Positions 42,094 through 55,094 of a stretch of DNA of 64,000 bases are shown one piece after another. Position 1 is the first letter of the stretch. Each line of letters begins with the position of its first letter. Position numbers and translations under genes: made by a program. The DNA lies in assembly GCA_963737065.1 (NCBI GenBank), contig CAVTRC010000001.1, positions 704,001-768,000 on the forward strand, in the 5' to 3' direction. The notes beneath the pieces are model-generated. The model made no database searches and was not told the origin of the DNA. It saw nothing but the letters and a program-made list of their open reading frames with translations. The DNA comes from Candidatus Eremiobacteria bacterium (lineage in GTDB: Bacteria > Vulcanimicrobiota > Vulcanimicrobiia > Vulcanimicrobiales > Vulcanimicrobiaceae).

Positions 42094-42978
42094 CTAATTC
42101 GACGAGCCCGCGAACACGCGGCTTTTCAGAAGGTCGTCGGGCGCTAGCGTCATCAAGTCGGTGCGCGTAATTTCGCCTTCGCGATCGAACAGCCGATTCG
42201 CTGCGCGCAAACGGGCGCGGTCGATCGCGTTGCGCACGCTGCGCGCGTTGGCGAAGTTCGGCTGGCGCACCCGGCGCTCGAGGTAGTCGCGAAAAATTCG
42301 TTCCGTTTCCGGTGCGAATTCGTAATTCAGTTGGCGCAGCATCACATGCGCGATGGCGACGAGTTCCTCGATCGTGTAATCCGGGAAATCGATGTGATGA
42401 GCAACTCGCGATCGTAGCCCTGGATTTGCCGTGAAGAATTGCTCCATGCCGCGTTTGTATCCGGCAAAGACGACTACCAGATCGTCGCGTTGCTCCTCCA
42501 TCACTTGGAGTAAGATTTCAATCGCCTCGATGCCGTAGTCGCGCTCGTTTTCCGGCCGGTACAAATAGTACGCTTCGTCGATGAACAGCACGCCGCCCAT
42601 CGCGCGCTTCAAGACTTCCTTCGTCTTCGGCGCCGTATGTCCGACGTATTGTCCGACTAAGTCGTCGCGCGTCGCGACGACGACGTGTCCTTTTCGAACG
42701 TAACCCAGCGCGGCGAGGACCTGCGCCACGCGTAGCGCAACGGTCGTTTTTCCGGTTCCGGGCGGCCCCGTGAACGACATGTGGAGCGGAACCTTCTGCG
42801 TGGCGAGCCCGGCGTCACGGCGCATTCGCTCGACGAGCAAGAGATGAGCGATCTCGCGTATTCGCGTCTTCACCGGCACAAGGCCGACTAACTCGTCGTC
42901 GAGTTGTGCCAGCACATTGCCGACGCCCGACTCGGCAAACACGGCCTTTAGGTCGAAGCGGCGTTCATTCTGAATCAT
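42094..42978 (-). CDS. cbbX: Red-type RuBisCO activase CbbX (AAA+)
   Basis: [44 protein letters not shown] and NARSVRN motifs. Confidence 0.95.
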
Positions 42979-43294
42979 GAAGAGCCGGTCGATGGACGAT
43001 GAAGCTGAGCGCGGTCGTCTGACGTCCGAGGCTTGCATCGTAAGCGTTCACTTTTACGTAGCAGCCCGAATGCAGCGCTCGCGCGCGGCGAACCTCGCCT
43101 AAGACGGCCGCGGGATCGCGCAGATCGAACATCGGCAAACCGAACATCTCCCAGTAATTGTTGCGCGGGTCCGGGTCATCCGTAAACTCGATCGAGACCG
43201 CCCACCCGTTATCCAACGAATACTCGATCTGCTTGCCGATTTGTTCGTCGGTCAGCGGTGGTAGAAATGAAAACGTTCCTTGAGTGATGTGCAT
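42965..43294 (-). CDS. cbbS: RuBisCO small subunit (109 aa, no C-terminal extension)
   Basis: [30 protein letters not shown] and LSFIVHRP motifs. Confidence 0.95.
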
Positions 43295-43305: not shown

Positions 43306-44799
<1,494 letters not shown>

Positions 44800-44858: not shown

Positions 44859-44875
44859 ATAAATGCAAACTTATG
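44859..44875. promoter_or_regulatory. Candidate CbbR box upstream of cbbL
   Basis: ATAA-ATGCAAAC-TTATG in an AT-rich patch, overlapping the cbbR stop codon. Same geometry as 45748-45764. Confidence 0.55.
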
Positions 44876-45749
44876 CGTGCTTGAAGCCGCCGCGTTCGCA
44901 GAGGTACGAGACGAACGTGAGCGCCGCGGGCGAAAGCTCCCGCTCGGCGCTCGCGACGGCATGCCACGGGCGCATCAACGGGGTAAGCGGCGTTGCGACT
45001 TCTTCGATGAGCCCGTATTCCAATTCCCGAGTAACGGCATCGCGCGCGAGCAAGGACATCCCGAGTCCGCAGCGGACGCCTTCGCGGATGGCCGTGTTCG
45101 ATCCGACGGTCAAGCACGCGGGCGTGATTCCGGCCATTGAAAAAAAGTCTTCAGTGGTGGAACGCGTCCCAGACCCCGGCTCGCGCAGCAGCCAGGTTGC
45201 ATGAGCGAGATCGGCCAACGTTCGCGCGCCGCTTCCCGGCCGCGCGACGATGACGAGTTCGTTCGGCCGCGTCGCCAGCGTGCGCAGTAGGTGTCCTTCC
45301 GGAGGATGGCCCGCAAGAGCGAGCTCCACTTCCCAGGCATTCAGTAATTCCCAAACGCTGCCGCGATTGCCGATCTCCAGGCCGATTTCGACCGAGCCGC
45401 GCTCGTCGCGGAAACCGCGAAGCAATTCCGGGAGCAGTTGTTCCGCAAGCGTCGTCACCGCAGCGAGGCTCAGGAAAGCATTTCCCTCACCGGACCTGCG
45501 CGCTCGCGAGCATCCTTCTTCGATGAGCGCGAGCGCACGACGCGCCGACTCGACCATGACGCGACCGGCGTCCGTGAGACGCGTACCGCGCCCGTCCCGC
45601 TCGAACAACGCGACGCCCACTTCGCGAGCGAGCGCGGTGAGCGCCGCCGATACTGCCGGCTGCGACACGACCATGCGATCGGCGGCCGCGCGAACCGAGC
45701 CGCTTTTCGCAACTTCGACGAGCGTTCGCAACTGATGCAGCGATGGCAT
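44871..45749 (-). CDS. cbbR: LysR-type regulator CbbR
   Basis: HTH SQPAVS...LFERDGRG and LREPGSGTR motifs; sits within the cbb cluster. Confidence 0.9.
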   Translation of the reverse strand: MPSLHQLRTLVEVAKSGSVRAAADRMVVSQPAVSAALTALAREVGVALFERDGRGTRLTDAGRVMVESARRALALIEEGCSRARRSGEGNAFLSLAAVTTLAEQLLPELLRGFRDERGSVEIGLEIGNRGSVWELLNAWEVELALAGHPPEGHLLRTLATRPNELVIVARPGSGARTLADLAHATWLLREPGSGTRSTTEDFFSMAGITPACLTVGSNTAIREGVRCGLGMSLLARDAVTRELEYGLIEEVATPLTPLMRPWHAVASAERELSPAALTFVSYLCERGGFKHA

Positions 45750-45785
45750 AAAACGGGCCTTATGAATAAGCGAAAATATTTTATT
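45747..45785. promoter_or_regulatory. Candidate CbbR boxes in the cbbR/fba divergent region
   Basis: CATAA-AACGGGCC-TTATG overlapping the cbbR start, followed by AT-rich AATAAGCGAAAATATTTTATT. Confidence 0.55.
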
Positions 45786-45850
45786 TGACGCCTATGTGTC
45801 GCGGTGCCATGATACCACAAAAGTCGCACTTCACCTCGGGAGATGTACAC

Positions 45851-46897
45851 GTGGGCACACATGGCGTTTGCTTGGCGCAAGTCGCCGATTCGCTGGTCGC
45901 TTCCGGTAAAGGCATCCTCGCCGCGGATGAGAGCATCCAAACGTGCAACAAGCGATTCCAAGCCCTCGGGATACCGGCCACGGAAGAAACGCGTCGTGCG
46001 TACCGCGAGCTTCTGTTCACTGCGCCGGGTCTTCGCAGCTACATCAGCGGCGCAATAGTATGCGACGAAACGATGCGGCAAACGACCTCGCGCAACGTGC
46101 GTTTCGTCGATGCATTACAGCGCGAACGCATACTCGTCGGAATCAAGGTAGATACCGGAACCGAATCGTTTCCCGGCTCGCCCGATGAAAAGATCACCAC
46201 GGGACTTGACGGGCTCGCGGAACGGATCGCGGAGTACCGCGCACTCGGAGCGCGTTTTGCCAAATGGCGCGCGGTGATTGCGATCGGCGAGAACCGGCCG
46301 TCGCAACACTGCATCGAGGCTAACGCGTACATGCTCGCGCGCTATGCGCGTATCTGCCAAGAAGGCGGCCTCGTCCCGATCGTCGAGCCCGAAGTGCTCA
46401 TGGACGGTTCGCACGACCTTGCCCGGTGCGCCGAAGTCACCGTGATCACGCTCGCGATCGTGTTCGAACAACTGGATCAGGAACGCGTTTGGCCCGATGA
46501 AATGATTTTGAAGCCGTCGATGGTGATCGAAGGCAGCGCCGCGCCGCTGCAGTCGGACCCCCGCGTGGTTGCGGCCGCGACGGTAACCGCATTGAAGAGA
46601 ACCGTTCCCTCACACCTCGCCGGCATCGCGTTTTTGTCGGGAGGGCAGAGCGCGCTGCGTGCCACGGAAAATCTGCATGCGATCACGCGCCTCGCGGGCG
46701 AGTCGTTGTGGCCGCTTACGTTCTCTTTCGGCCGCGCGCTGCAATCGACGGCGCTCGAATATTGGCGGGGAGCAGATGACCGGGTCGTGGAGGCGCAACG
46801 CAAGCTCGTACGTCGCGCTCGGTGCAACGCTGCCGCAGCGCTCGGAATGTACGAACAATCCATGGAAGAGGGTGCCCGCCAAGCGGTGCCGGCATAG
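45851..46897 (+). CDS. Class I fructose-bisphosphate aldolase
   Basis: GKGILAADES, GIKVDTG, FAKWRAV, VPIVEPEV, LKPSMV, FLSGGQS and TFSFGRALQ motifs. GTG start after GGGAG. Confidence 0.93.
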   Translation: MGTHGVCLAQVADSLVASGKGILAADESIQTCNKRFQALGIPATEETRRAYRELLFTAPGLRSYISGAIVCDETMRQTTSRNVRFVDALQRERILVGIKVDTGTESFPGSPDEKITTGLDGLAERIAEYRALGARFAKWRAVIAIGENRPSQHCIEANAYMLARYARICQEGGLVPIVEPEVLMDGSHDLARCAEVTVITLAIVFEQLDQERVWPDEMILKPSMVIEGSAAPLQSDPRVVAAATVTALKRTVPSHLAGIAFLSGGQSALRATENLHAITRLAGESLWPLTFSFGRALQSTALEYWRGADDRVVEAQRKLVRRARCNAAAALGMYEQSMEEGARQAVPA

Positions 46898-47965
46898 ATG
46901 CAACCGCGCACGACGTTCAGCCGCTTCATCACCGAAGATCAGCGACGTAAATACGGCGATCCAAACCTCGTCGCTCTTTTGAACGACGTTCAAAGTGCAT
47001 GCAAGCTGATTGCCTCGTACGTTGCGCGCGCATCGCTCGATCACGGCACGAAGCGTGAAAAAACGTTGAACGTTCACGGCGAACATCAAAAGCCGCTGGA
47101 CGTCATCGCGAACGAGATATTTCTGCGCGAATGCGAGTGGGGCGGACACCTGGCCGGAGTCATATCGGAAGAGATGGCTGAGCCGTACGTCATTCCGCCC
47201 ACGTTTTCCAAAGGCGACTATTTGCTCGTATTCGATCCAGTTGACGGGTCGTCCAACTTCGATGTGAATGTGACCGTCGGGTCGATCTTTTCAATTCTTC
47301 GGTCAACGTCGACCGAGGTCGATGCCGATACGTTTTTGCAGGCCGGGAAGGAACAAGTAGCGGCCGGCTTTGCTCTTTATGGGCCGGCCTCGATGATCGT
47401 GCTCACGCTCGGCGAGGGTGTCTTCGGGTTCACGCTCGACCCGCAAATGGGCGTCTATACGCTCACTCATCCCTTTATGACCATTCCGAATAACGCGCAC
47501 GAATTCGCAATCAACGCGTCAAACGAACGTTTTTGGGAGCCGCCTGTTCGCTGCTACGTCGCTGAGTGCGTACAAGGAAAGTCCGGTCCGCGCGGGGCCG
47601 ACTTCAATATGCGGTGGATTGCATCGCTCGTGGCCGAGGTGTATCGCATTCTCATTCGCGGCGGCGTCTTCATGTATCCGCGCGACAAGCGCGAGCCGCT
47701 CAATCCCGGCCGGTTGCGCCTGCTCTACGAAGCAAATCCAATGGCGATGATCATCGAACAAGCCGGCGGTTTGGCGTCGACCGGGCGCGAGCGAATTCTC
47801 GATATCGTTCCCTCCGCGATCCATCAAAAAGTGCCGCTGATCCTCGGTTCTGCATGCGAGGTCGAACGCGTCTGCAGCTATCATGCGACGTACGATCGCG
47901 GCGAAGCTTTGACGTTCGCTACGCCGCTCTTCAATCAACGCTCGCTTCTGCGCGCTACCCCGTAG
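46898..47965 (+). CDS. fbp: Class 1 fructose-1,6-/sedoheptulose-1,7-bisphosphatase (CbbF)
   Basis: SEE, FDPVDGSSN, MRWIASLVAEV and GRLRLLYEANP motifs. Confidence 0.93.
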   Translation: MQPRTTFSRFITEDQRRKYGDPNLVALLNDVQSACKLIASYVARASLDHGTKREKTLNVHGEHQKPLDVIANEIFLRECEWGGHLAGVISEEMAEPYVIPPTFSKGDYLLVFDPVDGSSNFDVNVTVGSIFSILRSTSTEVDADTFLQAGKEQVAAGFALYGPASMIVLTLGEGVFGFTLDPQMGVYTLTHPFMTIPNNAHEFAINASNERFWEPPVRCYVAECVQGKSGPRGADFNMRWIASLVAEVYRILIRGGVFMYPRDKREPLNPGRLRLLYEANPMAMIIEQAGGLASTGRERILDIVPSAIHQKVPLILGSACEVERVCSYHATYDRGEALTFATPLFNQRSLLRATP

Positions 47966-47975
47966 CGGAGACACC

Positions 47976-48895
47976 ATGTCCGTCAAGCATCCGATCATCG
48001 GCGTCACGGGATCGTCGGGCGCCGGCACTACGACCGTGCGAACGACGTTTTCGCAGATATTCCGGCGCGAACGGATTGCAGCAACGATTGTCGAGGGCGA
48101 CGCTTTTCATCGATATTCGCGCGAGGAGATGCGCCGGCAACTCGATGGCGCGCATGAGCGAGGCGACCCGCATTTCAGCCACTTCGGCCCCGAGGCCAAT
48201 CTCTTCGTCGAGTTGCAAGCGCTCTTTGAAAGTTACGCGCGTAACGGCTCCGGAAAGGTTCGCGCGTACCTGCATGACGAGAACGACGCGGCTCCATATC
48301 AGCAAGTTCCGGGAACGTTCACACCGTGGATGGATCTGGCACCCGGCGAGCGATCTGCTCTTCTACGAGGGCTTGCACGGCGCCGTGGTCACGGACAAGA
48401 TCGACGTCGCGCGCTACGTCGACCTGCTCATCGGGGTCGTGCCGTCGGTCAATCTCGAGTGGATTCAAAAACTCCATCGCGACAAGACGCAGCGTGGTCA
48501 CTCGCACGAGGCCGTCGTCGATACGATTCTGCGCCGAATGCCCGACTACGTGAACTATATCTGCCCGCAGTTTTCACGAACCGATGTGAACTTTCAGCGC
48601 GTTCCAATCGTCGATACGTCGAACCCCTTCGTCGCGCGTGCGATTCCGGCCGCGGATGAGAGTATGCTCGTTATCCGTTTCCGAAACCCGAAGAGAGATC
48701 GACTTTCCGTATTTGCTCGCGATGCTGCACGGTTCGTTTATGTCACGGCAGAACACGATCGTGTGTCCGGGCGGAAAGATGGACCTCGCGATGCAGTTGA
48801 TTTTCACGCCGATGATTCTGCAACTCATGGACCGCAAGAAGCGCATGTTGCCGCAGCCGATCCAAGGCGGGACGCGGGAACCGGTTCTTTCCTGA
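47976..48895 (+). CDS. prk: Phosphoribulokinase (CbbP), split by two +1 frameshifts
   Basis: MSVKHPIIGVTGSSGAGTT...PGTFTPW, shift at ~48345, SDLLFYEGLHG...NFQRVPIVDTSNPF, shift at ~48692, IDFPYLL...PGGKMDLAMQLI*. Confidence 0.92.
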
Positions 48896-48910
48896 TGTAA
48901 CGATAGGCCC

Positions 48911-49624
48911 GTGCGAACGTTCTCGGTACAACTTGCATCGACATGGAAACCGGAACGCTCCGCATTCGTAACGATCGTTATCGACGTCTTGCGCGCGACG
49001 ACGGTCATCGCTACGGCGCTTGCCAACGGCGCGACGCGAGTCGTCCCGACGATCGACATCAACGAAGCGCTCGCGTCACGGCAACGCTTCGGTCGCGACG
49101 TGGTTCTCGGCGGAGAACGGAACACTACTCGAATCGAGGGCTTCGACCTCGGCAACTCGCCCGCCGAATATACCGCGCGCCGAGTGAACGAAAAAATCGT
49201 CGTCCTGACCACGACGAATGGAACGCGCGCTATTCATGTCGCAGCACAATGTTCCGCGCAACTCTATACCGGCGCGCTCGTGAACGCGTCCGCAACCGCC
49301 GAGCGTGCGTGCACGCACGAACTTCCGATCGTTGCCCTCTGCGCCGGAACACAAGGCGAGTTCAGCTTGGAGGATTGGATTTGCGCGGGAGCTTTGGCCG
49401 ATGCGTGCGCGAAGAAAGGGCTCTCGCTCGACGATGCCGCAATCGCGGCGGCCGAATTATTCCGCGCTAAACGCACCGGCCTCTATCACGCGATCAGCGG
49501 CGGCAAACACGCCCAAATCCTCATCGAGAACGGCTTCGCAGGCGACGTCGAGTTCTCGGCCACGCTTGACCGTTACGATGTCGCTCCGGCTTTCGCCGGC
49601 GGCTCGCTGCAACGCGAGCGCTAA
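48911..49624 (+). CDS. comB: ComB-family (2-phosphosulfolactate/2-phospho-hydroxyacid) phosphatase
   Basis: VIDVLRATT, GGER, GFDLGNSP, LTTTNGT and FSLED motifs. 15 nt downstream of prk. Confidence 0.88.
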   Translation: MRTFSVQLASTWKPERSAFVTIVIDVLRATTVIATALANGATRVVPTIDINEALASRQRFGRDVVLGGERNTTRIEGFDLGNSPAEYTARRVNEKIVVLTTTNGTRAIHVAAQCSAQLYTGALVNASATAERACTHELPIVALCAGTQGEFSLEDWICAGALADACAKKGLSLDDAAIAAAELFRAKRTGLYHAISGGKHAQILIENGFAGDVEFSATLDRYDVAPAFAGGSLQRER

Positions 49625-50481
49625 GGGTGAAACATCGCGCGGAAGATGTATACGCCCGGGACGTCGCGGCAGAACGCGCGCGGCGCTTCGTACGTCGATA
49701 GACGGGCCGCGCGAAGAGCAGCGTCGTCGAACGCCTTGACGCCGGACGGCGCGTACACCCACGCACCGTCAAGCTCGCCCTTTGTGCCGACGGCGATTTC
49801 AATGAGCGACTGGTAGACTTGATCGATGTGATAGCCGACGGGCAAATCCGGCCTCATCGCTTCGCTCGCTCTTGCCGGCGCGAACGGCAGCGCGCAGTCG
49901 GTCGGGCCCGGAGCGCTCGCAATGACGGGGTGCAACAGCGGCGTACCGGGCGGCGGCGGTGTCGGCGCCGCGTCGGGATCCAAGGCAACGATGTCTTTCC
50001 CGATCGTCGTTTCCGGATGCTTTGGATCGTACTCAGAACCGGCGCACGCGTGCGATTGCGAATCCCAGCCCAAGGTGTGCTCGTCGGTGACGCGTGCATC
50101 ACTCACGAACGCCGCACGAACGACGGCCGGCGAAGAGAACGCCGCGAACAGCGCGGGCGACTCAAAATCCGTTCGAGTGAATACCGCCGACGGTCCTTCG
50201 AACCGTCGCGTGCGCGCGGTCAAATTCACGCCGTCGAATGGAATCTCGTACCAGCCGTCGTCGGTCTGCACGGAAATGTCACCCGAGACCGTGCGCGAAC
50301 TATTGGCCGACAATCGCACCGCGTACGTGGTTGCCGGCGTGCCGGTTGCGGCACCGACCGGCGTGAGGCTCGCCGAAGCTCCGCAGTACTCGACGATCGC
50401 GAGCGCACGTCCGTGCGCAGCGCCAACGAAAGCGAAAATTCCAGCAGCAAAAAGCGCAACACGAAACGCGCGATGATTCAT
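49621..50481 (-). CDS. Secreted protein with C-terminal TonB-like domain
   Basis: Signal peptide, Pro-rich linker, IEIAVGTKGEL...PSGVKAFDDAALRAAR. Confidence 0.65.
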   Translation of the reverse strand: MNHRAFRVALFAAGIFAFVGAAHGRALAIVEYCGASASLTPVGAATGTPATTYAVRLSANSSRTVSGDISVQTDDGWYEIPFDGVNLTARTRRFEGPSAVFTRTDFESPALFAAFSSPAVVRAAFVSDARVTDEHTLGWDSQSHACAGSEYDPKHPETTIGKDIVALDPDAAPTPPPPGTPLLHPVIASAPGPTDCALPFAPARASEAMRPDLPVGYHIDQVYQSLIEIAVGTKGELDGAWVYAPSGVKAFDDAALRAARLSTYEAPRAFCRDVPGVYIFRAMFHP

Positions 50482-50558
50482 CACGACCTTTTCCGCTCCC
50501 CCCGCAAAGGCAACCTGCCGGAAGGATTCACATTCGTGCAGGCGGACTACCAATCGTC

Positions 50559-51653: not shown

Positions 51654-52680
51654 GTGGCTAAAACGGACGTAACGGCGAAGGGCGTAGATCGTCACGGGCT
51701 GACGGACGAGCAGTTGCAGCAAATCTTTCGGAACATGCTGCTGCAGCGTCAACTCGACAATCGCGGCTTTCAACTCAACCGCCAAGGCAAAGTGCCGTTC
51801 GCGCTCGGCAGCGAGGGACACGAAGCGCTGCAAGCCGGCGCGGCGATGGCGTTTCATCGCGGCAAAGACATCCTCGCGCCGTACTATCGCGATCTCGGTC
51901 TCGCGGTCGGCATCGGGCTCACGCCGTACGAGATCATGCTCTCGATCTTTGCGCGACGCGACGATCATAACGGCGGACGTCAGTTTCCGAATCACTATTC
52001 GTCGAAAGCGGCGGGCTTGATGTCGTTCTCATCGATTCTCGCTGCGCACATTCCGCACGCGATAGGCGCTGCATATGCATTGAAGTATCGCGGGGAAACC
52101 GGACGCGCGGTGCTCGTGACCTGCGGCGACGGCACCACGTCCGAAGGCGAATGGCACGAGTCGATGAACTTTGCGGCGATTCACTCATTGCCGCTCGTGA
52201 TGCTCGTCGAGAACAACGAATGGGCGATTTCGACGCCGCTTTCGAAGCAGATGGCGCAACCGGAAATTTGGAAGCGCGCGGCGGGATACGGCATGCCGGG
52301 CAAACGGTTCAACGGCTTCGATCCGATCGAAACGTACGCAAACGTGAACGAAGCCATGGAACGCGCACGCTCGGACGGCGGCCCGACCCTTCTCGAAGGG
52401 ATGTGTTACCGCTTCTTGGCGCACTCCACGGACGACAACGATATGACGTACCGCACGAAAGAGATCGTCGCCGAAGCGCGCAAGAACGATCCGGTGCCGA
52501 AGTTTCAAACGCTGCTGCGTCGAGGACGGCATCATGAGCGAAGCCGACGTCGACGCGATGAAAAAAGACGTGCTGCGCGAGACGAACGAGGCGACCGATA
52601 AAGCCGAAGCCGTTCCATATCCGCAAGCGTCAGATCTCTATAGCAATCTCTACGAGGGAGCCTGGCAGCCGTGGCAGTAA
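51654..52680 (+). CDS. 2-oxoacid dehydrogenase E1 alpha subunit (copy 2), +1 frameshift near the C-terminus
   Basis: GDGTTSEG...ENN and HSTDDND motifs. After ~52518 the +1 frame gives VEDGIMSEADVDAMKKDVLRETNEATD...YEGAWQPWQ*, matching copy 1. Confidence 0.9.
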
Positions 52681-53672: not shown

Positions 53673-55094
53673 TGGCTACAACGATCACGATGCCGCAACT
53701 CGGCGAAACGGTTACCGAAGGCACCGTCGCACAGTGGCTCAAGAACGTCGGCGACACCGTTGAGAAGTACGAGCCGTTTCTCGAAGTATCGACCGATAAG
53801 GTCAATGCGGAAGTCCCCGCACCCGTGACGGGCGTTATCAAAGACGTGCTCGTGAAAGAAGGCGACACGGTCCCGGTCGGTACTGCGATTGCAGTCATCG
53901 AAGAAGTGGACGGCGCAACCGAAGCTGCGCCTGCAGCACAACCACCGTCGACGACTGAATCGATGGCCGCAAGTGCGAACGAAGAGCCCGTTCCCGGGTT
54001 CAACATTCCGCAATTGCCGACGAACCGGCAGCCGCGTCATCGGGTAACGGCCACACGCGCACGGGAACGGCGTGATTCCGAGTTCGTACGGCGCATCCGG
54101 CGGTCTCGAAGGCGCGGAGGACGCGCTTCGCAAGGCGTCGCCGGCGGTGCGCAAACTCGCGCGCGAGAACAACATCGACATTCGAGCGATCCGCGGAACC
54201 GGCACGAACGGACGCGTTACCGCGGAAGACGTCATGGCGGCGGCCGCAATGGGTCCGGCCGCGGCCGTCGGTCAAGCGATTGCGACCGGCACGAATTTCG
54301 GCGCAACGCCGCCGCCGTCGTTTGCAGCCTCCGCGCCGCCCGCGGCTCCCCCGCCGGCGCCGGCCGCGTCCGGTACATCGAGCTACGGCGCACCGATTCC
54401 CGGCACCGTTATTCCGCTCACGCAAGCGCGCCGCATCATCGCGGAACGCATGGTTGAATCGAAGCATACTGCGCCGCATGCGTGGTCGATGGTTTCGATC
54501 GACGTGACGAACGTGTGGAAATGGCGCGCTCGCGAAAAGGATCGCTTCGAACGCGAAACGGGATACAAATTGACGCTTCTGCCGTTCTTCATTCGCGCCG
54601 TGATCGAGTCGATATCGGTATTTCCCTTGATGAACGCAAAGTTTACGGCGGACGGGATCTACGTGAATAAAGACGTCAACATCGGCATCGCGATCGGTCT
54701 CGCGACAAACCTCGTCGTTCCCGTCATCAAGGGTGCCGATGCCTTGTCGATCAAGGGCCTCGCGATTGCGGCAGGCGAGTTGATCGATAAAGCGCGTCGC
54801 AACAAGCTCGGCGTGGACGATCTCGCGGGTGGAACGTTCACCGTGAACAACAACGGCGCGAACGGTTCATGGGCGTCCGCGCCGATCATCAACGGCGGTC
54901 AAGCCGGAATCGTTACGATGGAAACGGTAGAAAAGAAGCTGCTCGTGCGCGAAGACGATTCATTTGCTCCACGTTACGTGATGAACTCGTGCCTCTCGCT
55001 CGACCATCGCGTCGTCGACGGTTACGTCGCAAGCGGCTTCCTCGCCGACCTGAAGAAACGACTCGAAAAAATGGGCCCGGACGGCGCGCTCTAG
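53672..55094 (+). CDS. Dihydrolipoamide acyltransferase E2, net +1 frameshift in the linker
   Basis: Lipoyl domain ([18 protein letters not shown]), shift at ~54000-54070, then [10 protein letters not shown]...GTGTNGRVT and catalytic DHRVVDG. Confidence 0.9.

Follow-up and report, generated by a model that had tools for sequence, protein, structure and literature searches.

In the C2 route, as set out in PMC11032457, 2-phosphoglycolate made by the oxygenase activity of RuBisCO is converted to glycolate, glyoxylate and then glycine, which reaches the glycine cleavage system. The cbb operons of C. necator encode a phosphoglycolate phosphatase of the HAD type, CbbZ, according to PMC7486775, and all the 2-phosphoglycolate phosphatases named in the consulted passages of PMC6278635, PMC11032457 and PMC7486775 belong to the HAD superfamily. 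Here we describe comB, a gene for a phosphatase of another family (PF04029), found in a stretch of 64,000 nucleotides (nt) from a Candidatus Eremiobacteria bacterium (assembly GCA_963737065.1, contig CAVTRC010000001.1, positions 704,001 to 768,000; hereafter the window), where it appears to close an operon of Calvin-cycle genes. Graham and colleagues reportedly observed in 2001 that the ComB of M. jannaschii hydrolyses phosphoglycolate and 2-phospholactate in vitro.

In this bacterial family (probably Eremiobacterota), comB turns up repeatedly as an accessory gene of Calvin-cycle clusters. The explanation that we rank first, tentatively and at slightly less than an even chance, is that ComB is here a non-HAD 2-phosphoglycolate phosphatase of the Calvin-cycle cluster that works like CbbZ, with a substrate that we infer. 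The by-product of the RuBisCO oxygenase reaction, 2-phosphoglycolate, would be dephosphorylated by ComB to glycolate, and the glycolate would be passed on to a dehydrogenase of the GlcD/GlcE type whose genes lie elsewhere in the genome. ComB would thus be a non-HAD functional analogue of CbbZ. A full-text literature search, with subscription journals and supplements outside its scope, found no link between the ComB family and RuBisCO, phosphoglycolate salvage or glycine cleavage; a tool paper (PMC9252766) mentions that comB is found with moderate conservation next to petRP in cyanobacteria.

The region 48911-49624 encodes an intact ComB-family phosphatase, its activity being predicted, and this agrees with the identity given in the original prediction, an earlier note made from the sequence of the window. 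The protein matches PF04029, the only Pfam family that it matches, with 231.5 bits (cut-off 26.4) over profile positions 13-223 of 226, essentially at full length, and its frame is uninterrupted. A sequence search recovered solved homologues of the ComB fold: 1VR0 (E 3.2e-43), 2YYV (E 1.3e-39) and 2Z0J (E 4.2e-25). In an alignment of 38 ComB sequences, with the query as its first row, 29 columns were invariant, all of them therefore present in the query; they include D25, R28, E69, N82, S83, N103, D155, H200 and D212. The orthologue in G003, a genome of the same genus, is 70% identical across all 237 residues, and comB is under purifying selection, with a ratio of nonsynonymous to synonymous substitution rates (dN/dS) of 0.23. 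The core Calvin-cycle genes evolve more slowly (0.05-0.17 against G003). This is the only PF04029 gene in the whole genome. A total of 7,621 ComB relatives were scored; the closest are metagenomic (55-60% identity, P0003-P0007), and those at 44-47% identity come from Candidatus Elarobacter, Velthaea, Vulcanimicrobiaceae and Eremiobacteraeota.

Four described systems bear comparison with this locus. The window protein shares with the archaeal ComB of coenzyme M synthesis (PF04029, with the bacterial structures listed above) its family, its fold by homology, a full-length match and the invariant residues, but it differs in having neither a ComA partner nor coenzyme M genes in the window, and its partners are Calvin-cycle genes. 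Its substrate is probably not phosphosulfolactate. Bacillus subtilis offers a bacterial ComB homologue outside methanogenesis, namely the YitC/YitD pair, which we take to be the ComB and ComA that serve to make spore sulfolactate; there the two are paired (PF04029 and PF02679 both matched), whereas the genome studied here has PF04029 only. CbbY resembles the present case in that comB directly follows cbbX in several relatives, as cbbY presumably does in some red-type operons; CbbY is a HAD protein acting on a sugar bisphosphate, whereas the substrates known for ComB are 2-phospho-acids. With CbbZ/Gph (C. necator cbbZ2 and cbbZp, PMC7486775) the likeness lies in a phosphatase gene placed in a CbbR-associated Calvin-cycle operon and in the reaction proposed. 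ComB has an unrelated fold and matches neither HAD families of Pfam nor TIGR01449, so it is not a member of that group and the likeness is at most functional.

The Calvin-cycle locus of the window comprises the following features.

comB: 48911..49624, + strand, ComB-family phosphatase of 237 residues, GTG start, intact; predicted last gene of the + strand operon
prk: 47976..48895, + strand, phosphoribulokinase (PF00485), read in three frames, stop TGA at 48893-48895
fbp: 46898..47965, + strand, class I fructose-1,6-bisphosphatase (PF00316 and PF18913), 82% identical to the G003 protein
fba: 45785..46897, + strand, class I fructose-bisphosphate aldolase (PF00274, 425 bits, match starting at residue 30)
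control region: 45750..45850, no strand, between the divergent cbbR and fba, containing the box ATAA-N11-TTAT (45766-45784) and, on the + strand, a promoter-like site (45785-45813)
cbbR: 44871..45749, - strand, LysR-type regulator (PF00126 and PF03466), 91% identical to the G003 protein
cbbL: 43306..44772, - strand, RuBisCO form I large subunit (PF00016 and PF02788)
cbbS: 42965..43294, - strand, RuBisCO small subunit (PF00101), starting at the ATG of MHITQG
cbbX: 42094..43038, - strand, AAA+ protein of the CbbX type (PF00004 and PF17866), longest open reading frame (ORF)

The genes fba, fbp, prk and comB are co-oriented, with intergenic gaps of 0, 10 and 15 nt, and the adjacent cbbR is divergent from them and co-oriented with cbbLSX; a cupin gene lies on the - strand as well. 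Downstream of comB the next gene (49621-50553, matching no Pfam family) is convergent, so comB ends the operon. The arrangement places comB at the end of an fba-fbp-prk-comB operon; that the four genes are co-transcribed and controlled by CbbR is our inference. The original prediction of such an operon holds for strand and spacing, with one caveat that it did not mention: prk is not a single open frame. The 15-nt gap between prk and comB applies only if prk is read through both of its frameshifts.

Some starts within the locus deserve comment. For fba the GTG at 45851, preceded by GGGAG, looks likelier than the TTG at 45785 that begins the longest ORF, and 101 nt separate cbbR from this likely start. 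The G003 orthologue of CbbX (294 residues) aligns to 42978-42097, and the true cbbX start is probably near 42978; G003 CbbS aligns to 43294-42983. CbbL matches solved RuBisCO structures with about 820 bits at best. The nearest of these are red-type form I enzymes, which fits the presence of cbbX. The inverted repeat ATAA-N11-TTAT, just upstream of the promoter-like site, is a candidate CbbR box and could be a LysR-type site. The promoter scan returned two sites against 1.7 expected, which is near background and was not counted as evidence, and the same applies to the terminator scan.

Reading of prk begins in frame 0 at 47976, shifts to frame +1 at about 48348 and to frame +2 at about 48691, and stops at the TGA at 48893-48895. 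Frame 0 holds PF00485 positions 1-105, frame +1 holds positions 109-196, and the C-terminal 64 residues, ending at 48895, are in frame +2. Alignment to the intact prk of G003 places two one-base insertions near 48348 and 48691. The genome contains no second prk. With the two extra bases removed, the comparison with G003 gives a dN/dS of 0.05, matching the low ratio of cbbL, and the frameshifts are therefore either very recent or errors. Further breaks relative to G003 affect the second E1-alpha gene (about 52501-52517) and the E2 gene (about 54022-54054) of a 2-oxoacid dehydrogenase cluster, giving four in about 6 kb. A rough genome-wide check, limited to genes whose reference was at least 55% identical and biased towards references from the loci studied here, flagged two of 63 genes, prk and E2, and left the other 61 without a break, while missing the E1-alpha shift. 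Such clustering suggests a locally poor assembly or local decay, and the breaks in prk and its neighbours are probably local assembly errors.

To place this locus among its relatives, 401 genomes of the same phylum (probably Eremiobacterota) were searched with ComB, the intact G003 prk and cbbL; genes were called with a simple ORF caller and tblastn, and these genomes are related, not independent samples. We found cbbL in 47 genomes (E≤1e-60), prk in 36 (E≤1e-20) and comB in 62 at the strong threshold (E≤1e-20) or 75 at E≤0.001. Unpublished genomes are included in these tallies (G014, G243 and G283 with cbbL or prk; G361 with comB), none of them among the linked cases. A strong comB accompanied cbbL in 24 genomes, that is, in 24 of the 47 with cbbL versus 38 of the 354 lacking it. 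Of these 24 genomes, 16 have cbbL or prk on the comB contig at a distance of no more than 10 kb. A seventeenth linked case, G174, spans a contig break, with a cbbX fragment 80 nt before comB at the start of a contig. Linkage is absent or not judgeable in the other seven: the two genes are 2.7 Mb apart in G165 and on different contigs in G034, G400, G281, G213, G378 and G248. At least seven layouts were distinguished among the linked genomes.

Layout 1: fba-fbp-prk-comB; genus g1 (this genome and G003)
Layout 2: cbbLSX-rpe-fba-fbp-prk convergent with comB; genus g31 (G273, G294)
Layout 3: cbbR-comB divergent from cbbLSX-prk2-glpX-fba; genus g31 (G162, G318)
Layout 4: cbbLSX convergent with comB; genus g7 (G305)
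Layout 5: comB-fbp-prk; genus g19 (G024, G274)
Layout 6: cbbLSX-comB co-oriented, gaps of 11-81 nt; G229, G051, G154, G290 and G174
Layout 7: cbbLSX with comB 1.8-5 kb away; genus g60 (G297, G298, G377)

The association has thus been kept despite rearrangement, in 17 of 24 genomes and at least seven arrangements. Genus g31 has two cluster types with different FBPase and prk isoforms, and both carry comB: class I fbp accompanies the usual prk in one, and glpX a divergent prk in the other. The original prediction named loss of the linkage in relatives as a refuting outcome, and the linkage is not lost; to prk itself, however, comB is linked in only three genera. In genera g1, g31, g7 and g19, chosen after their linkage had been seen, nine genomes carry comB and cbbL together, 81 lack both, and no genome carries one without the other; because the genes are adjacent, their joint loss would be expected irrespective of function.

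A second, divergent PRK-family gene was observed beside cbbL in several loci (L164:9476-10405, L166:7000-8073, L177:6048-6977, L120:13364-14365 and L179:1250-3385), and these divergent genes are missed by the prk query at E≤1e-20. In L179 a single ORF matches both transaldolase (PF00923) and PRK (PF00485), which may reflect a gene fusion or read-through from one gene into the next. In G294 (L107, 3480-10625), cbbL, cbbS, cbbX and comB are each recovered in several tblastn pieces and are whole in G273, pointing either to a decaying cluster or to an indel-rich assembly.

In a quick maximum-likelihood tree, 68 ComB sequences sort by genus, and the proteins of this bacterial family fall in two groups. 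The first contains g1, g31, g7 and g19 together with the metagenomic relatives nearest to this ComB; its genomic members with a readable neighbourhood all have comB beside Calvin-cycle genes, except G378. In the second (g29, g49, g60, g46 and g51), comB lies 0.5-5 kb from a dxr-rseP-ispG block, and cbbLSX is inserted directly upstream of comB in some genomes and not in others. In genus g29, comB is present in 26 of 33 genomes and cbbL in only five of 33; ComB therefore has some use without RuBisCO. The dxr-rseP-ispG block was seen near comB in L110, L112, L114-L116, L118, L119, L124-L133, L136, L138-L142 and L145-L147, and a class I aldolase gene is often found in g29 at 3-6 kb from comB, on the side away from that block.

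We also inspected 160 ComB loci listed from other phyla, 80 from genomes (L026-L105) and 80 from metagenomes (L182-L261), a set that excludes the closest ComB relatives. Among those listed, a Calvin-cycle gene was near comB in none of the 80 genome loci and in one of the 80 metagenome loci. Three of the 160 resemble the lineage of the window, one with cbbLSX and two with ispG-rseP-dxr. Clustering of the neighbours identified gcvT, encoding the glycine cleavage T protein, as the commonest neighbour of comB in this set: in 43 of the 160 loci it precedes comB in the same orientation, at no more than 310 nt in 38. The close gcvT-comB loci belong to Ignavibacteriota, Bacteroidota, Chlorobiota, Rhodothermales, Latescibacterota and others. 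In three Bacillota genomes and one metagenome contig, the latter judged by spacing, comB stands last in a complete glycine cleavage operon. The order is gcvT-gcvH-gcvPA-gcvPB-comB in Desulfosporosinus; Desulfitobacterium has one radical-SAM gene and a lipoate ligase gene in between, and a Peptococcaceae genome has two radical-SAM genes and a lipoate ligase gene there. Examples of gcvT-comB loci are L026:5695-7493, L102:1424-6907 and L081:2407-10672, and in L060 and L081 comB is followed by genes for a PK_C-domain protein and a PduL-type phosphotransacylase.

The enzymes that might compete with ComB, or accompany it, were then sought. In the window 64 ORFs were called, and 61 of them plus the pieces of prk were scanned with Pfam, some matching no family. 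HAD, ComA and microcompartment families were absent from the ORFs and pieces scanned, as were coenzyme M genes, so the earlier statements that the window holds no HAD-type cbbZ, no coenzyme M gene and no carboxysome gene stand for 61 of its 64 ORFs. Elsewhere in the genome there are five HAD-like matches to TIGR01449, the best at 70.7 bits against a cut-off of 180. ComA (PF02679) had no match in the whole genome (95.3% complete) or in any of five comB-bearing relatives tested, while the same search was positive in three control genomes, and B. subtilis matched both PF04029 and PF02679. Elsewhere the genome has a GlcD-like gene (469 bits), and next to it a GlcE-like one. No phosphoserine phosphatase of the SerB type exceeded the cut-off in the genome (best 22.5 bits versus 144).

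If ComB replaced CbbZ, RuBisCO genomes lacking comB could have a phosphatase of another family in its place. Strong comB matches are missing from 23 of the 47 RuBisCO genomes. Twelve comB-poor RuBisCO genomes were searched at 20 loci, taking the 96 of 145 called ORFs nearest to Calvin-cycle genes, and no phosphatase of any family was found among these 96. A tblastn search with the five HAD-like proteins of the present genome gave no match in any of the Calvin-cycle loci retrieved. TIGR01449-like matches, all below the cut-off, were similar in five genomes without comB and five with it; HAD-like candidates thus occur with and without comB, and non-orthologous displacement is not shown. The original prediction, in which ComB is a possible non-orthologous enzyme in the CbbZ role, is partly supported, through the recurrent Calvin-cycle linkage. 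ComB is an accessory gene, not a demonstrated CbbZ substitute.

We rank the 2-phosphoglycolate phosphatase explanation first because a phosphatase step for an alpha-phospho-carboxylate sits between the Calvin-cycle and glycine cleavage gene sets, both of which are linked to the family; the two sets mark the two ends of phosphoglycolate salvage. A broader proposal can be made, and we regard it as possible but on the doubtful side: that PF04029 proteins act physiologically on 2-phosphoglycolate and form, beside the HAD enzymes, a second class of such phosphatases, recruited twice into C2 metabolism, once into the Calvin-cycle operons of Eremiobacterota and once into the glycine cleavage operons of Bacillota and of a Bacteroidota/Ignavibacteriota group. 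If true, it would provide a function for thousands of bacterial genes annotated as 'probable 2-phosphosulfolactate phosphatase' in organisms without ComA; the name of these homologues comes from a pathway of methanogens for which most of their hosts are not equipped. A ComB-type enzyme in Calvin-cycle clusters would be a new solution for the disposal of 2-phosphoglycolate, in a lineage linked to atmospheric chemosynthesis in poor soils. With two independent neighbourhood signals, from Calvin-cycle genes in this lineage and from glycine cleavage genes outside it, the hypothesis lends itself to testing.

Several observations weigh against a 2-phosphoglycolate phosphatase. The Calvin cycle runs without comB in the 23 RuBisCO genomes mentioned, and the complementary pattern of comB versus a cluster-encoded HAD phosphatase was absent from the 12 genomes and 20 loci searched. 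This genome has HAD-like candidates of its own outside the window. Conversely, 38 of the 354 genomes without RuBisCO keep comB, which in g29 lies near dxr-rseP-ispG, and part of the linkage between comB and the Calvin cycle may be inherited synteny. The genomes are related, and the four genera showing strict co-occurrence were picked post hoc. Outside this lineage, 157 of the 160 listed loci have no Calvin-cycle gene nearby. Desulfitobacterium and Desulfosporosinus are strict anaerobes in which little 2-phosphoglycolate is expected, and in anaerobic Bacillota the link to gcv genes may mean something else. Finally, prk is frameshifted in this assembly, so the Calvin cycle could be inactive here.

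These points lead to the alternatives. The one that we take most seriously, unlikely as we consider it, is that ComB is a housekeeping repair phosphatase for 2-phospho-acids, such as 2-phospholactate or the 2-phosphoglycolate that arises from kinase side reactions or DNA repair, and that its Calvin-cycle position is mostly historical. The history required, in our view equally doubtful, is that cbbLSX once came to lie beside a resident comB near dxr-rseP-ispG and that this neighbourhood was inherited and reshuffled. The retention of comB in 38 of 354 genomes without cbbL fits this account, as does the distance of 0.5-5 kb between comB and ispG in g29, g49, g60 and g46, whether cbbLSX is present or not. 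ComB proteins of g29 from RuBisCO and non-RuBisCO genomes interleave on the quick tree, which follows genera; the family is widespread in non-autotrophs (the 7,621 relatives scored, and PF04029 matches in seven of 14 control genomes); and the dN/dS of comB exceeds those of the core Calvin-cycle genes. Yet in g1, g31, g7 and g19 comB is away from the ispG site and still beside Calvin-cycle genes, in five layouts, and it occurs there only where cbbL does (nine genomes with both, 81 with neither). Two distinct cluster types within g31 have comB, and gaps of 11-81 nt after cbbX and of 15 nt after prk suggest co-transcription; all of this weighs against a mostly historical position.

A three-carbon phospho-acid tied to serine and glycine would be another substrate: ComB could convert 2- or 3-phosphoglycerate to glycerate, in a non-phosphorylated serine route, or phosphoserine to serine. 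Such a substrate would explain both the Calvin-cycle and the glycine cleavage links, the latter being seen as gcvT-comB or gcvTHPAPB followed by comB in 43 of the 160 loci listed from other phyla; the genome has no SerB above the cut-off, and on chemical grounds 2-phosphoglycerate shares the alpha-phospho-carboxylate core of phosphosulfolactate. We nevertheless find it rather improbable. The gene is missing from four of five other genomes of the genus and from 76 of 80 in g31, all of which need serine, and since most close relatives without comB must make serine, ComB is not the general serine-pathway phosphatase of the lineage. Hydrolysis of 2- or 3-phosphoglycerate beside RuBisCO would also drain the product of the cycle, and phosphoserine bears its phosphate on C3, unlike the substrates known for the family. 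That ComB instead clears inhibitory sugar phosphates freed from RuBisCO by CbbX, such as xylulose-1,5-bisphosphate, and so is an analogue of CbbY and not of CbbZ, seems highly improbable. It draws on the position of comB directly after cbbX, with gaps of 11-81 nt, in five genomes of three genera (and convergent with cbbX in one more), and on Rhodobacter sphaeroides, in which cbbY and cbbZ presumably follow cbbX. The substrates known for the family, however, are 2-phospho-carboxylic acids rather than sugar bisphosphates, the link to glycine cleavage genes in other phyla has no tie to RuBisCO inhibitors, and in the window comB follows prk, not cbbX. A canonical 2-phosphosulfolactate phosphatase, making sulfolactate for coenzyme M synthesis or as in Bacillus spores, is what PF04029 membership and the name that sources give to the relatives would indicate; it is scarcely credible here. 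ComA was found neither in the genome nor in the five comB-bearing relatives, with three controls positive, and the scanned ORFs of the window include no coenzyme M gene. The missing ComA therefore makes the textbook sulfolactate role unlikely.

Downstream of comB, two tandem E1-alpha genes (PF00676; 50650-51594 and 51654-52601), about 67-69% identical to each other, precede the E1-beta and E2 genes of the 2-oxoacid dehydrogenase cluster. The same tandem duplication is present in G003.

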